This document shows, in pieces, positions 41,183 to 48,636 of a stretch of DNA of 64,000 nucleotides; within the stretch, counting starts at the first letter, position 1, and each line of letters opens with the position of its first letter. A program made the position numbers and the translations under genes. The notes below the pieces were generated by a model, which made no database searches, was not told where the DNA came from, and saw nothing but the letters and a program-made list of their open reading frames with translations. Source of the DNA: Escherichia coli (GTDB taxonomy: Bacteria > Pseudomonadota > Gammaproteobacteria > Enterobacterales > Enterobacteriaceae); the NCBI RefSeq assembly GCF_003018115.1, contig NZ_CP027457.1; one strand, 5' to 3'.

Positions 41183-41355
41183 TACTGCTCCTGAACGGTT
41201 TACAGGAGTAAGTGTAGACGATGGTAAATGAATTTTGTGGGGTTATGCTTTCTTCCCTACCAAGCTGTTATATCCAGTTCAAAAACAATCATTTTACATC
41301 ATCATCAAAGCAGCGAATACTTGACCGATTGGTAGTACCGCTGCATATTTCACCA

Positions 41356-41613
41356 TCAATTATATTTTATAATTTGTTGTATTGCTGACTTTATATTGCC
41401 AATGACATCCTCATCATTAAATTCATTTAATATATTTTTTAGAATAGGATGTAGTTTAATATCACCTAAAATACCTGCCGAAATAATCACTTCATCAAAA
41501 ATTATGTTTTTTTGCAGTTCATAAATTATAGCAGTTATAACACGATTATCTTTTCTTTCTGCCAGTCCGCTTATAGCTTCAATTCTGGCACAATCATTCT
41601 TATCTGTCAGCAT
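41356..41613 (-). pseudogene. 85-codon ORF with HEAT-like repeat character; possible remnant of a gene disrupted by the adjacent H-repeat element
   Basis: Starts 13 nt after the H-repeat ORF stop, in a different frame, with no convincing RBS. Repeat-like AISGLAE.../ILGDIKLHPILKNIL pattern. Weak call. Confidence 0.25.
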
Positions 41614-41625
41614 TCCAGGGCAAGA

Positions 41626-42762
41626 TTACGAAAGCCCGCTCCCCGCAAGGACTGACGCCAGATAGTTTCTGTCCATGGCTGCTTTTCGCATCTTACGTCT
41701 TAACCCTGCCTTGAATACCTTATCATTCGTCAAAATATTAATAGCAATGTGCCGTATCCCTGAAAATAATTCTGCTGCATTTCCTCTTCTTATCTTGCAG
41801 TCGTCTTCATTCATTACCACGTCCAGACGCCAGTGCAGCTTATTCTCCACGTGCCAGTGGTTTCGGATTGCTGTGGCGAACTTCTCTGCGGTTAAATCAG
41901 CAGAACTGATATAATATCTGACCGTCATTTCTGGTTCTTTCTTTTGTTCTGCTATTATGGACCGAAAGGAGACTGCCACGCATAATTTCTTCAGCCCTTT
42001 CCATTCAAACGTGAAATCAATAAGTTCATAAGGGACATCGCAAACAATATGAAGACGGATCTCTTCTCTGCCGTGACTCTTTTCACTGATTGCGTAACTG
42101 TCATGCTCTGGATTATTTAATTCTTTCAGCGGAAATTTTTCCTCAAAGGCTTTATTTAGCCGCCCCTGGTTTCCTTTTACCGCGAATAAATAATCACCTC
42201 CCTGTTTTTGTATCTTCTCTGCAATATCTTTCTGGCAACCCATCGCATCAGTTGTGATGATTTTTCCTTTAATATCCAGCATGTTAAGAAGTTCTGGGAT
42301 AGCTGTAATCTCATTAGATTTCTCATCCGTCTTGATCTGTCCGATGACCAGACTGTGCATTGTTGAGAACGCACTAATGACATGAATCGCTCCCCTGCGG
42401 CGACTCTTGTCATAAGAGTGCCGGAGCGTTTTTCCATCAATTGCAATGACGTCTTTATCATCTGAAGAATGGCAGTCACGCATCCAGTTAATAAAGCACT
42501 CGTGAAATTTTGCAGGACTGATACAGGATACAACTCTGGCAATGGTATCGTGAACAGGAATACCATTTTCAAAATCACCATATTGCTTCAAAAAATCGAG
42601 ATGTGTTTCCCCAAAATCCTCTATATCTTCCCAGCCTTCTGCACCAGAAATAACGGCACAAATAGTCAACAGTAGAATATCAGATAATTTATGTTCCACT
42701 TTCCAGGCTTGTCTGTAATCAGGGATAAGAGAAATATGTTCCATCAATTTTTTAAGCTCCAT
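41626..42762 (-). mobile_element. H-repeat (ISAs1-family) transposase-like ORF, 378 aa, of the kind found beside Rhs elements
   Basis: [64 protein letters not shown] is the H-repeat protein N-terminus as I recall it; sits between ybgA and the Rhs locus. Confidence 0.85.
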
Positions 42763-43420
42763 TTTGTTCTCCTTAATTATGTAAGGAGTATTTGATCATG
42801 TATAAGCAATAAAAAACAGCTTCAGGTAATGAGGAATATCTCAATTTTTAAACATAAAATGCGAATTATTTAGTACAAAAAGTGAACTTCTGATGATCTT
42901 TCCCTGTGATTGCTTCCCGTTTCCCGATACGGCGGCGCGGGGAGTCATAAAGGTAAGAAATTTCCAGCAGTACGGCGTCCTATTGTTCACGGCGGTAATG
43001 CACCAGCCAGTATTGGCTATCGTAGTGATAACCGTGTAACCTGCCGCCGCATCGCGTATCTAATGTTCATTCTTTTCCATAAACCGTCCGTACACATTGT
43101 GATAGTAAAAATACAATACATCTTCGCTGATGCGGTTATTCTGCTGCATGTGGGAAGCGCCGAATACTGCTCCCGGTATGGCCAGTAATTACTATTTAGT
43201 ACGACGTTAGGGGGAGTCACTTAATCTCACAGATACTTCAAGTAACAGATGAAAATCGCTCCTGAAATGAAAAAAGAATTTTTTTTGAATGTGTTTCTGT
43301 CAAATCAAGTGGTTTTTTCGTCGATATGTAGAGTCATATTGTACACAAAATAGTTACGAAACACACCTTGGTAAAATATTTGAATCGACTGTACAGTGGA
43401 TTATTTTGTGTGTATTACAT

Positions 43421-43675
43421 TCAACACTTGCCCATCTTTTTCGCTATTAGTATTGTAAAATTTCCTCCTAACGTCTTCGGTTGTTTTCCCTCGATTTTCC
43501 AACAATTATTGTCATCTGTAATACTATATGGTTTCTGAAATTCTGCTTTTTCTTTCCCGTATACATATTTAATGTAAACATATGATAATTCCAAAGCCAT
43601 TTCACGACTATTTACTAAAATTTCCACAGGATTTTCTTTTCCAAATACTGAGTGTGATATTGTAAACAATATCAT
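43421..43675 (-). CDS. small hypothetical protein, 84 aa; candidate orphan immunity protein
   Basis: ORF directly downstream of a short toxin-like open frame (about 43712-43849, minus strand) in the Rhs-associated AT-rich region. No family recognised. Confidence 0.3.
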   Translation of the reverse strand: MILFTISHSVFGKENPVEILVNSREMALELSYVYIKYVYGKEKAEFQKPYSITDDNNCWKIEGKQPKTLGGNFTILIAKKMGKC

Positions 43676-43870: not shown

Positions 43871-44440
43871 TTATTTTTCTTCACTACGAAGCAGTTCATG
43901 CTGTATTTTTGTTAAACATTCGTAAGACTCATCTTTGTTCGGGAGATGTGCTGTCATTCGAGCATAAGTTGGCTTCTCATCTTTAAAATATTTAACCATG
44001 ATTGAATTATCAAGGACTGCCAACAACTGAGCTGGATCACTGCTCTTTTTTTGATAGATACCCGCTCTTATATAACTTCTAAACCGATCGCCGAGAAACG
44101 CCGTTTTTTCTGCTGTATTTATCAACTCCTGCAACGTTCCTTTGATGGTATGATTTTCATTAAGGCGTAGTGACCCGACGCGAATTAAGAGTCTCGCCCC
44201 GCTTGGTGTGAATTTATTATTTTTACATGTGCCCAGTTCTGTTTGCCAATAATACTCACCGATGTCCTCATTCTGATACCATCTCCACATGGCTTTATTA
44301 TTTAAGACAGGAAACGCGGAAAAAATAGTACCCTTAGCGAAAATAGTAAAACAATCATGATCTTTAGCTTGTATTTCGCAATCAGCTATAACACCAAAAC
44401 TAACAAATATCATCAGCAAAAAGAACAAAACTCTTTTCAT
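43871..44440 (-). CDS. Rhs immunity candidate with a Sec signal peptide, 189 aa (YbfC-like)
   Basis: Starts inside the last codons of the Rhs gene (4-nt overlap). N-terminus [21 protein letters not shown] is a classical signal peptide with a V-I-A cleavage motif. Confidence 0.6.
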
Positions 44441-47400
44441 TTTCTTATTCCTCTCGATGTTCTCTGTTTCATTTTAGCTAAAATTTCACCCAAATCATCT
44501 ATCCCTGCTGTTGCTGGCCCATCGGGTTTATTAATGTCTGGGAATAAATAGGGTTCTGCACAAGTATATCCTGGTGGTAATTGAGTTGTTGGCCAATTTG
44601 TCTGTGGCAGGTAATCACTTGCTGTCTTTGTATCCATCCCTGGATACTGGGGATCATCCTGTGGCGTACAAGTCAGATTTGGTTTTACCCACTTCCTGCA
44701 ATACAGTGTGTAGTCGTAAGGGCTTAATACTCTGAAGAATGTTTTGAAAACATTAGGCGCACTACTGGCCTGGTCAATAGGATATGGCAGTCTTAATTGT
44801 TTCGCTATGTCTGGCAATTTACTTGGATCGGGCGTAGGCGGTTTGTTGGGTCTCGCTCCATATCCGCCATTATTTAAGTGTCCATATTTTGATGCCAGTC
44901 CCATTGAATCTATATACTGAACCGGATTCAACGGATACTGATAAAAATTCCATCCCCCCTTCAGTCCAATCGGATCCTGAGTGATATATCGCCCCTGCAG
45001 CGGGTCATAATAGCGGTGGCGGTTGTAATACAGGCCGGACTCCTCATCATACTGCTGCCCCGGCAGGCGGATAAGCTGCTGCAGCTGATGCGGGTTCTCT
45101 TCATTCAGCAGGTTGCCCCACTCATCGTATTCTGCGCACCATTCTGTTGCCCCTTCCGTGCTGATAAGCACCAGCGGCAGGCCGCGATGGTCGCAGTGGT
45201 ACAGGTGAATTTTTCGCGCCGGCGTGTACACCGGGTCCAGCTGGTTTTGCATCTGCTTCACCGTCAGGCCGCACGATGCCAGCCAGCGGCGGCTTTCCTC
45301 ACTCACCCGGTCAGCCAGGATTTCACTTTCCAGCCGGTCGAGCATCTGCACCAGCACCGGCGGGAACACCACACTGCCACCGTCTTCGCCGCCGGACTGC
45401 TGAAGCGCATCCGCCAGGCTGCGGCGCTGCGTTTTCGCCAGCTCACCGGTGGCGGTTTCAACCCTGATGAGTGGCGTGAAGCTCCCCGGCTGATAAATCG
45501 TCTGGATGCGGGTTCTGTCGTTCTGTATTGTGGTCAGCCGGTCGCCGTCCCAGCCGTACCAGGTCACTTGCGGTTTCCGTGACAGCGACATCCAGCCCGT
45601 CAGGTCCCGTTCACGTCGCCACACCCGTTTTGCCACCCTGCGGCCCAGCGGGTCGTAAAGATAGCGACTTTCGACCAGCGGCTCTGCATATTGTGTCCGC
45701 GTGTAGTGCACCAGCCGGTGCTGACTGTCGTAATGGTACCGGTGGGTGCGCTCATCATCCGTGCGGATAACCCCTTCCGGGATGAGGTCGGTTTTCTCTG
45801 TCAGTCTGCCGTGACGGTCATACCGGTAAAGATAGTGCGCGTCACGGGCGATACGGTTATCCGGCCACATGCTGAGGGTGCTGTCCGGGTGCAGCTCCGG
45901 GTCGGGCAGGCGGTTACCTGCCGGGTCTGTGGCATACGGGATGCGGATATCCAGAGTTGAGGTGGTGGTGTGAACGCCGGTCAGCCTGCCGGTGGTGCTG
46001 TAGCTGTAACTCCGGGTATGGCGCGGGCTGCTGATGCGGATGAGTTCGCCGTTGTCGTTCCAGGTGTAATCGCGGTCATACTGCAGGCTGTTCAGGTGCT
46101 GACGCTGTAACTGCCCGGCAGGGGTGTAAGCGGTGGTGAGTTCATAACGGCCGAAGCTGCGCAGCGTTTCCCGGTGCAGGCGGTCGCGGGTGAAATCCAC
46201 CAGCGGTGTGTCGCCGAGCTTCATGCCTGCCAGGTAACCGCTGCCGTAGGCCAGCCATTCCACGGCGGGCAGGCTGTCCGGTATACAGCGGTTCGCCAGT
46301 CCCTGCGCGTTGTACGCATGTCTGGTCTCATGCTGCCAGAGCAGTGCTTCCGTCTGCGGGTGATGCACCGTCTGACGCTCACCGGTCAGCCGGCCTTTCT
46401 CATCATACCCGTAATGCACCGTCACCCGGTGCCCTTCGCTGATATGGCTGATGTCTGTCAGCCAGCCGCGTTCGTCGTACCGCCACCGCTCTGCGGTTTC
46501 ACCCTTCACGGTGCGCTGCGTGAGGCGGTCTGCTTCGTCATAGTGCCAGTGGGTGACCAGCCCCTCATCCTCGCTGCGGATAAGTTTGCCGGTCAGGTCG
46601 TGGTGATAACGCTGTGTGCGGCCGTCAAAGCCGGTTTCCTGTATCAGCCGGTCGAGTACATCGTAACGGAAGGTGGTGTGGCTGCCGTTTTCACTGGTCA
46701 GGCGGATGACCCGTCCGGCAGCATTGTATTCCATACTGCGCGTCAGACCGCCCTGCGTGGTACGGATGGCCTTTCCCCACGCATCGTACTGTGTCCCGTT
46801 TCTGCTGCCGTCCGGGGCAATGACGGCGGTCAGGTCACCGGCGATGTTGTATTCATACCGCATTTCATGGCCCTGCATGTCTTTCACCGCAATTAACTGT
46901 CCACGGCTGTCGTATGCACGGTACTGGCTCAGCCCTTCCTCGCGGTGCACCGCCGTCATCTGCCCGAAGCGGTCATGGTCATAACGGGTTACATAACCGG
47001 AACAGTCGGTGAAGCTCAGCAACTGGCCGTAACGGCTCCATGTCATGGTTTTCCGGCTGCCGGTGGCATCGTCCGTTGCGCAGGGTAAGTCACTGTGTGG
47101 ATTATCATAACGGTAGCGGGTGATATCGCCGTTGTGTGCAGTTTCCTGAATCAGACGGCCCAATTCATCATATTCCCGGCGTATTTCCAGCCCGTCTGGC
47201 CCGGTGGCTGACGTTAACTGGCTGTGGTGGTTATAGTAAAACGCCGATGCCCTGCCATCCGGCGTGGTGATGCGCGTGATGAGTCCCGTCACCACATCCG
47301 GGCTGTACTCAGTCGTCCGGCCTGCGGCATCCGTCTGTGCCTTAAGCCTGCCCACCGCGTCAAACTGACTCTGCGTGACGCTGCCGTCCGCGTGTTCCTT

Positions 47401-48636
47401 TTTCACCACCCGCTTCAGCCCGGCTTCACCCTGCGTGTGCAGGACTTCACGGCGGTCCAGGCTGTCGGTGATGGTGATGCGGTCTTTCTCATACTGATAC
47501 GTGTAGCTTAAGCCTGCCGGGTTTAGCTGTTCTGTCACCCGCCCGTCGCGGTCGTAACGGTAACGGATTTCCGGTCGGCCCGTGTGACGGTGCGCCACCA
47601 TCCGGCCCCGGTATTTATCATCGTAAGTAAAGCTGCGCACCTGTGTATTGCTGCGGTCATACACCGCCGCCAGTTCGCCGCGCGGCGTCCAGCCATAGCG
47701 CACCAGCGGCGCGGCAGGTAAATTCTCCGGGTATTCCGGGTCGTGCGTCAGCCACACGGCAGACAGACGGATGCCGTTGTCCCGGCCATATTCGGTGTAA
47801 CCCGGCAGGGTATCAGGAAAAGCGGACGGTTCCGTCCCGCCGGAAATGGCCTGCTGCCGGGCTTCTTCTGCCCGCTGCGCCTGCGTGGTCAGTACCAGCC
47901 GGAAGTGACGCCCGGCACCATCCGTCACGCCGGTGATTTCGCCGCTGAATTCACCGGCGGCTTCGCGGTGGAACGTCTGTGTGCGCCCGAAGCGGTCCAC
48001 CAGCCCGGTCAGTACCCGGTACGGCGGCAGCGGCGCAGGCAGCACCTCATCCGCTTCCGGCACCCGCTCACACCAGCCGAGCAGCCACCACGGCCCCTGC
48101 GGGCTGTTTGTCGCCAGATAACGATGCGGACTTAAGCGGAGTTCTTCCGGCAGCGCCTGCCAGAGTGCGGCCAGCCGGTGACCTTCATCCAGTTTCGCCA
48201 CACCGCCGCGCACCAGCCACAGTGACTCGCTGCGGCTGTAACCGTCCTCACGGGGAAACAGGTGCTCAAAATACAGGCTTCTGCCGCCGTTATCACTGAG
48301 TATCAGTGTGTTATCGCGCAGCTGTAAGCGGATATCCGCAGGCATTTTCCAGCCGGGGCCGAGGCTCCCCACCGGCGCGGGCGTTTTTGTCCGGTAACTG
48401 CTGTAGGTGCGGGAGAGAATGAACGGCAGCGGGGCGGGCAGGGCGATGTCGGTTTCACCGGGAAGGACCTTTGCACCCAGCAGCGGATTGACCGGATGGC
48501 CGGACGTCACTCCGCCGGGGCACACCGAACAGGCCACGCCGGTGGGGGCACCAATGCGCACCCCGGCTGAACCCTGGACAATGCTACCGCCATACTGCGT
48601 CATGTCGCCCTGACGCGCCGCCGGTTTTCCGCTCAT
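44437..48636 (-). CDS. rhsC: Rhs-family polymorphic toxin, 1399 aa: conserved core with YD repeats, then a ~150-aa variable C-terminal toxin domain after [27 protein letters not shown]
   Basis: N-terminus [33 protein letters not shown] and YD-repeat core match E. coli Rhs proteins as remembered; locus position next to ybfA/kdp corresponds to rhsC. C-terminal domain family not recognised. Confidence 0.9.

Follow-up and report, generated by a model that had tools for sequence, protein, structure and literature searches.

H-rpt elements at Rhs loci have reportedly been the subject of work by Hill and colleagues. The described element closest to the one analyzed here is H-rptB (yhhI) of the K-12 RhsB locus, which is 1,291 bp in length, has CAGGG-type termini, carries one 378-aa DDE transposase and lies at the distal, variable end of its Rhs island. 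That the variable ends of Rhs loci carry H-rpt/ISEc1 elements is a classic observation, and the literature on it is cited in the E. coli W genome paper (PMC3032704). YibA (PDB 1oyz), a HEAT-repeat protein, is encoded by a low-GC, Rhs-linked gene located immediately downstream of rhsA, and Poole et al. 2011 (PMC3150448) state, with reference to Hill and colleagues, that yibA neutralizes the inhibition of growth by the RhsA C-terminus. The same paper describes orphan toxin-tip/immunity modules behind rhs and cdi genes, in which core fragments and immunity genes form arrays and some members are disrupted by IS elements.

A locus in the window, which is the whole 64,000-nt stretch of E. coli DNA analyzed in this study, was compared with these three systems. 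Its ISEc1 element shares with H-rptB the length, the type of termini, the single 378-aa transposase and the position at the distal end of an Rhs island, but it is located in the RhsC island, flanked on one side by an Rhs core remnant and on the other by a yibA-like 3' fragment that forms an 85-aa ORF. The parent gene of this ORF resembles yibA in being of low GC content and linked to Rhs. In contrast to yibA, however, it is a paralogue and an orphan at the end of an array, not a gene directly after a toxin tip, and only its last 85 codons are left in the window; the protein cannot be complete. The locus likewise resembles the orphan modules in consisting of core-fragment and immunity-gene sequences downstream of a main rhs gene and in being disrupted by an IS element, whereas its terminal immunity-like gene is truncated and probably dead rather than a usable spare. 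Taken together, our analysis indicates that, very probably, ISEc1 cut a yibA-family gene in the RhsC island, that a dead 85-codon tail was left, and that at least one IS-anchored rearrangement took place. The features of the locus are as follows.

41183..41220, strand not assigned: core-genome spacer beside ybgA; Nissle-type homology stops at 41220
41321..41615, minus strand: 295-bp block of 30% GC, comprising the HEAT remnant and 35 nt of 3' flank, found in 35 genomes
41356..41613, minus strand: 85-codon ORF, 3' remnant of a yibA-family HEAT-repeat gene, by sequence and context comparisons
41616..42906, minus strand: complete ISEc1 (H-rpt) of the ISAs1 family, 1,291 bp, 40% GC, delimited by the alignment limits of other copies
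41616..41626, strand not assigned: terminal inverted repeat on the transposase 3' side (IRR), CAGGGCAAGAT
41626..42762, minus strand: intact ISEc1 transposase gene, 378 aa, stop codon included, from the ORF list and Pfam
42896..42906, strand not assigned: terminal inverted repeat on the transposase 5' side (IRL), ATCTTTCCCTG, reverse complement CAGGGAAAGAT
42917..43149, minus strand: decayed Rhs core remnant (Rhs residues ~923-1004), from tblastn of the window Rhs protein against 42907-43430
43421..43675, minus strand: orphan Imm-NTF2-2 immunity gene of the Rhs array (Pfam PF15631, E = 1.9e-14)
43871-44440, minus strand: ybfC, directly downstream of and overlapping the main Rhs gene
44437-48636, minus strand: main Rhs gene, 1,399 aa, from the ORF list and RefSeq annotation
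43871..48636, minus strand: main Rhs gene and ybfC together

The window contains the E. coli RhsC island in the arrangement ybfA–Rhs–…–ybgA–phr–dtpD; in the E. coli W genome paper (PMC3032704), which uses K-12 gene numbers, the RhsC site is b0699-b0706. The features of the minus strand are, in order, Rhs core protein, ybfC, Imm-NTF2-2 gene, IS, 85-aa ORF, ybgA and phr, with dtpD located beyond phr on the plus strand, and the RefSeq annotation of near-identical genomes gives the same layout. The island is of the RhsC type and is inserted between ybfA and ybgA, which directly adjoin each other at the empty site of Rhs-free genomes such as Nissle. Position 41220 was taken as the island boundary, because homology of the Rhs-free (Nissle-type) genomes to the window stops there. 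The GC content is 30% in the HEAT-remnant block, ~62% in the Rhs core and ~52% in ybgA and phr, and a value of 30% is typical of Rhs accessory DNA. No toxin tip is adjacent to the Imm-NTF2-2 gene (43421-43675, minus strand), and the RefSeq version of this gene in strain D8 is somewhat longer, at 100 aa.

The original prediction of a 378-aa ISAs1-family H-repeat transposase was confirmed; the ORF is located at 41626..42762 on the minus strand. The protein matches the Pfam domains DDE_Tnp_1_assoc in its N-terminal part (1.1e-33) and DDE_Tnp_1 (1.5e-30), 374 of its 378 residues are identical to those of the K-12-type YhhI (H-rptB/ISEc1), and at the DNA level the element and the K-12-type yhhI copy share 98.5% identity across 1,295 aligned bases. 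The RefSeq name of the gene in near-identical genomes is 'ISAs1-like element ISEc1 family transposase'. The four substitutions, with the window residue given first and that of K-12 YhhI second, are L12I, A19T, N198T and Y245D; position 245 is thus Tyr in the window and Asp in K-12.

The boundaries of the element were defined by other ISEc1 copies in 5,342 genomes, whose alignments to the window are confined to the interval between 41612-41618 and 42905-42912; the 64-kb window itself contains one copy only. The IRR-side terminus is common to the copies in K-12-type RhsB (L002), in O157:H7 (L003) and in a further contig (L016). An extension of IS homology by 12 nt that appeared in genomes of the H146 class was rejected as a chance resemblance of the flanks. 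The H-repeat ends, whose location had been proposed as a check, were found as inverted repeats of the CAGGG type, CAGGG(C/A)AAGAT: CAGGGCAAGAT and CAGGGAAAGAT agree at 10 of 11 bases, and at 13 of 25 when lengthened. A DDE transposase, a length within ~1.2-1.5 kb combined with short imperfect inverted repeats, and near-identity to the reference place the element in the ISAs1/ISEc1 group, in which a target-site duplication is also expected around a simple insertion. The accompanying check for such a duplication came out negative, as a direct repeat of 3-12 nt was not found at either side of the IS, which argues against a simple insertion and not against ISEc1 family membership.

The 85-codon ORF was found directly downstream of the transposase gene, as predicted, at 41356..41613 on the minus strand, and is labeled 'hypothetical protein' (WP_000954499.1) in RefSeq. 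Two details of the original description had to be corrected. The gap between the transposase stop codon and the ATG of the ORF is 12 nt rather than 13 nt, and the two genes lie in one frame rather than in different frames, with the first base of the stop at 41628 and that of the ATG at 41613, 15 nt apart (TAA TCT TGC CCT GGA ATG). Four codons separate the stop from the ATG within window positions 41611-41628 of the minus strand. The ORF lies outside ISEc1, its ATG (41613-41611) starting 2 nt beyond the IS terminus.

As had been noted, no ribosome-binding site is obvious: no usable Shine-Dalgarno sequence was found before the ATG, and the upstream sequence ...TAATCTTGCCCTGGAATG is IS DNA until 2 nt before the ATG. 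Promoter scanning of the region gave seven promoter-like sites versus 8.0 +/- 3.2 expected, none of them upstream of the 85-codon ATG on the minus strand; both the promoter and the terminator scan were at chance level and thus say no more than 'no obvious signal'. The remnant, lacking its own promoter and ribosome-binding site, is most probably a pseudogene fragment. It could plausibly still be transcribed by read-through from the IS, and reinitiation would be conceivable.

The truncation point was located by comparison with contigs in which the gene is uninterrupted (L004, L006 and L011). By blastn, their match to the window sets in at 41615, immediately outside the IS terminus (41616). At this point the uninterrupted version has ...TTTATCA followed by GAATGCTGACAG, and the window has ...CTTGCCCTG followed by GAATGCTGACAG. 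Because the uninterrupted homology starts exactly outside the IS, the 85-codon ATG corresponds to an internal Met codon of the parent gene. It is the Met of ...FIRMLTDK... in the parent protein, and hence an accidental start rather than the native one.

The parent gene was identified through protein homologues, the search of the fragment against full-length proteins having been suggested with the original prediction. A search of 5.8 billion proteins recovered longer homologues of the 85-aa ORF, of 143-148 aa and 85-96% identity. With a 202-aa composite as the query, the matches included a 232-aa protein of Escherichia sp. E4742 (91% identical), shorter ones under the name E. albertii, and P0014, a full-length relative of 288 aa under the name E. 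fergusonii (58% identical). The composite also matched YibA (1oyz, 280 aa) over residues 92-272, with E = 3.9e-41. The 85 aa correspond to YibA residues ~199-280, which is the last ~30% of a ~280-aa protein or ~2.5 HEAT repeats, and are ~48% identical to residues ~199-272 by a hand count of 73 aligned residues. The HEAT-like pattern that had been reported for the ORF therefore holds through the longer homologues and the match to YibA, with HEAT_2 scores of 45 bits for the composite and 40.8 bits for P0002 at a gathering cut-off of 27.7, but not for the fragment alone, which is sub-threshold (Pfam HEAT_2, E = 0.097).

In several IS-free loci, uninterrupted homologues of 143-232 aa are located beside ybgA, namely in E4742 and in contigs whose HEAT proteins match the E. 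albertii-named sequences. The order in L004 and L005 is Rhs, a 149-aa gene, a 30-aa ORF, the HEAT gene, ybgA and phr; in L006-L008 the HEAT gene is followed by ybgA; and in L011 (E4742) the order is ybfA, Rhs, DUF6258, pentapeptide, Imm-NTF2-2, orphan Rhs, 149-aa gene, HEAT gene and ybgA. These loci, together with the start of homology at 41615, support the prediction that the ORF is the 3' remnant of a gene cut by the IS. YibA homology and HEAT-repeat architecture are thus established through the parent composite, whereas the full length of the YibA family (~280-290 aa) is not reached, with 85 aa left compared with 288 aa in P0014, and the remnant is preceded by the IS rather than directly by a cognate Rhs toxin tip. 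In E4742, whose locus is IS-free, the HEAT gene follows another small gene and is the last of the array, i.e. an orphan. YibA reportedly acts as the antidote to the RhsA toxin tip, and neutralization of a specific Rhs C-terminal toxin is known in this family only for that pair. By transfer of this role from YibA at ~48% identity, the parent gene was most likely an orphan gene of the immunity type that closed the RhsC array.

An intact 288-aa yibA-family gene, encoding P0014, was found elsewhere, between nikR and a GntR/PTS cluster (L012-L015, 7001-7867). There is no Rhs gene nearby, making it a free-standing candidate immunity gene, and its locus appears to match the position of the RhsB site in K-12.

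The flank on the IRL side, up to 42907, is of a different nature, being formed by the decayed Rhs core remnant, which carries a frameshift and a stop codon. Its Rhs homology stops ~9 nt short of the IS junction. The 5' part of the HEAT gene is absent from the 64-kb window, as blastn with L006 1-1634 and L004 1-4555 matched only the Rhs core. Because the flanks are mismatched, the 5' part is missing and no duplication is present, we infer an insertion and at least one IS-end-anchored rearrangement; the IS marks a rearrangement joint and not a simple insertion. No genome was found with both halves of the HEAT gene around the IS, and an original simple insertion is likewise a reconstruction.

In the course of events that we propose, the last island gene beside ybgA would originally have been a yibA-family HEAT-repeat gene of ~280 aa. 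The 1,291-bp ISEc1 would have come to end 2 nt upstream of an internal Met codon, so that the last 85 codons survive, and the 5' two-thirds of the gene would have been lost, leaving the other IS end against the decayed Rhs core remnant. The further rearrangement could have been an adjacent deletion anchored at an IS end or an exchange between ISEc1 copies by homologous recombination. Genomes of the O157:H7 type lack the other 295 bp as well, and there the gap stops exactly at the IS end.

The O157:H7 locus is consistent with such losses. There, the IS end directly abuts 41320 and the 295-bp remnant is absent, while an extra 482-bp block with DUF6258 is located between the other IS end and 42907. 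The endpoints, an IS terminus and the arbitrary base 41320, are typical of an IS-anchored deletion or of an independent insertion. The 482-bp block was considered as the missing 5' half of the HEAT gene and ruled out, being an unrelated DUF6258 gene region. In the O157:H7 locus (L003 4001-5800, compared with window 41320-42907) the transposase gene contains an internal stop, and the O157:H7 and window lineages each lack a different IS-adjacent segment.

Alternatively, an ISEc1 copy inserted in the HEAT gene might have recombined homologously with a second copy in or beside an Rhs core fragment, and the junctions would then have arisen in this way instead of by IS-end-anchored adjacent deletion; this is a real though somewhat doubtful possibility, and it concerns the mechanism only, with the same parts involved. 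Rhs and H-rpt repeats are classic recombination substrates, to which the name 'rearrangement hot spot' goes back, and there is a median of five ISEc1-homologous places per E. coli genome, with ~26,000 places for ISEc1 copies in E. coli altogether. Other copies (for example those in L016 and at K-12 RhsB) also lack target duplications and lie beside Rhs fragments, in agreement with this possibility. However, exchange between co-oriented copies in one island yields the same product as adjacent deletion, and the two cannot be told apart from that end state, while the O157:H7-type endpoints described above are those typical of adjacent deletion or independent insertion.

The K-12 RhsB locus contains a comparable case, a yibA-like pseudogene that is also co-oriented with ISEc1 and truncated at its terminus, and that is annotated by PGAP as 'HEAT repeat domain-containing protein, missing C-terminus'. 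In the K-12-type sequence (L002 5291-5641), this pseudogene retains codons 1-116, has an internal stop and abuts the IRL end of H-rptB/yhhI. The geometry is mirrored, with a 5' fragment at the IRL end in K-12 RhsB versus a 3' fragment at the IRR end in the window. The two fragments were considered as halves of one insertion, but the breakpoints are at YibA codons ~116 and ~199, and the K-12 fragment is nearly identical to yibA, while the window fragment belongs to another paralogue. Because both the breakpoints and the paralogues differ, the two truncations are independent events. There are thus two independent cases of ISEc1 with a yibA-family gene, the 5' fragment in K-12 RhsB and the 3' fragment in the RhsC island of the window, both co-oriented with the transposase. 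It nevertheless seems very improbable that ISEc1 is recurrently tied to yibA-family genes, whether by preference or through shuffling or inactivation of immunity genes, and equally improbable, as a separate matter, that the remnant is translated as a mini-HEAT protein or a transposase fusion.

Among 5,426 complete E. coli genomes, the HEAT fragment is present in 35, all 35 of which have the identical IS junction and a fragment of 99.1-99.6% identity, and none of the 5,426 contains an uninterrupted HEAT gene. The carriers include O169:H41 F6326-C1 and O157:H16 Santai. This distribution is not that of an intact small gene conserved across many strains under its own promoter, which had been named as the finding that would speak against a remnant. 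The IS is located near the ybgA flank in 344 genomes, so that ~309 genomes of the O157:H7 type, which are commoner than the fragment carriers, have the IS without the fragment; this number is the difference of 344 and 35 rather than a direct count, and the 200-nt junction megablast was blurred by the joining of pieces up to ~600 bp apart. At its RhsC site, K-12 has only defective H-rpt fragments (ybfQ and ybfD). Divergence from the window begins at 41220 in Nissle-type genomes, at ~41239-41245 in K-12-type genomes and at 41320 in O157-type genomes, and there are at least four junction states beside ybgA in E. coli. These states, the Rhs core remnant flank and the absence of a target duplication bear out the original suggestion of a recombination boundary.

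The pattern of substitutions was compared with that of the neighboring genes. Relative to E4742, the fragment has seven nonsynonymous differences and one synonymous difference, compared with 6 and 16 in ybgA and 27 and 72 in phr, respectively. The difference is significant by the Fisher test (p = 0.009 versus ybgA and p = 0.001 versus ybgA and phr combined), although the counts are small. Relative to the L006 copy, the dN/dS ratio of the fragment is ~0.3, a sign of the constraint that formerly acted on the intact gene. Among the variants of other strains, P0004, P0005 and P0006 have an 8-aa deletion, a scrambled and apparently frameshifted N-terminal part, or a later start. Furthermore, IS-free HEAT copies are themselves broken, that in L004 (4213-4980) by a premature stop and a 10-nt gap and that in L006 (1250-1905) by an N-terminal frameshift. 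Decay of the HEAT gene thus seems to extend through the genus.

Most of the 35 carriers have kept the 85-codon frame open (the cluster P0001 has 63 member sequences). This, the position of the ORF 12 nt past the transposase stop in the same frame, and the report that orphan immunity genes can be expressed (Poole et al. 2011) could be taken to mean that the ORF encodes a functional small HEAT-repeat protein under selection, such as a minimal immunity module, produced by read-through or reinitiation. We consider this highly unlikely, as the ORF holds only ~30% of the YibA fold, or roughly 2.5 repeats, a ribosome-binding site and a promoter were not found in the searches described above, nonsynonymous differences outnumber synonymous ones 7:1 relative to E4742, decayed variants exist, and the ORF has been lost in the ~309 IS-keeping genomes and never occurs IS-free in E. 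coli. That the ORF is a passenger gene of a longer H-rpt variant, as its constant joining to the IS in E. coli might suggest, can practically be dismissed, as all other ISEc1 copies end at 41616, the terminal inverted repeat separates the transposase gene from the ORF, and the occurrence of the same HEAT gene beside ybgA without the IS in other Escherichia already refutes it.

In conclusion, the 85-codon ORF is best described as the tail of a yibA-family gene cut by ISEc1, a feature of a kind already known and a case of ordinary genome decay at a known hotspot. Its practical value lies in better annotation, beyond which it has little importance: the 85-aa 'hypothetical protein' WP_000954499.1 should be flagged as a truncated yibA-family HEAT-repeat pseudogene. 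In addition, the junction states on the ybgA side are a convenient strain marker. The locus offers a worked example of the distal decay of an Rhs island: ISEc1 cuts a probable orphan immunity gene, after which the flanks disappear stepwise, with each step anchored at an IS end.
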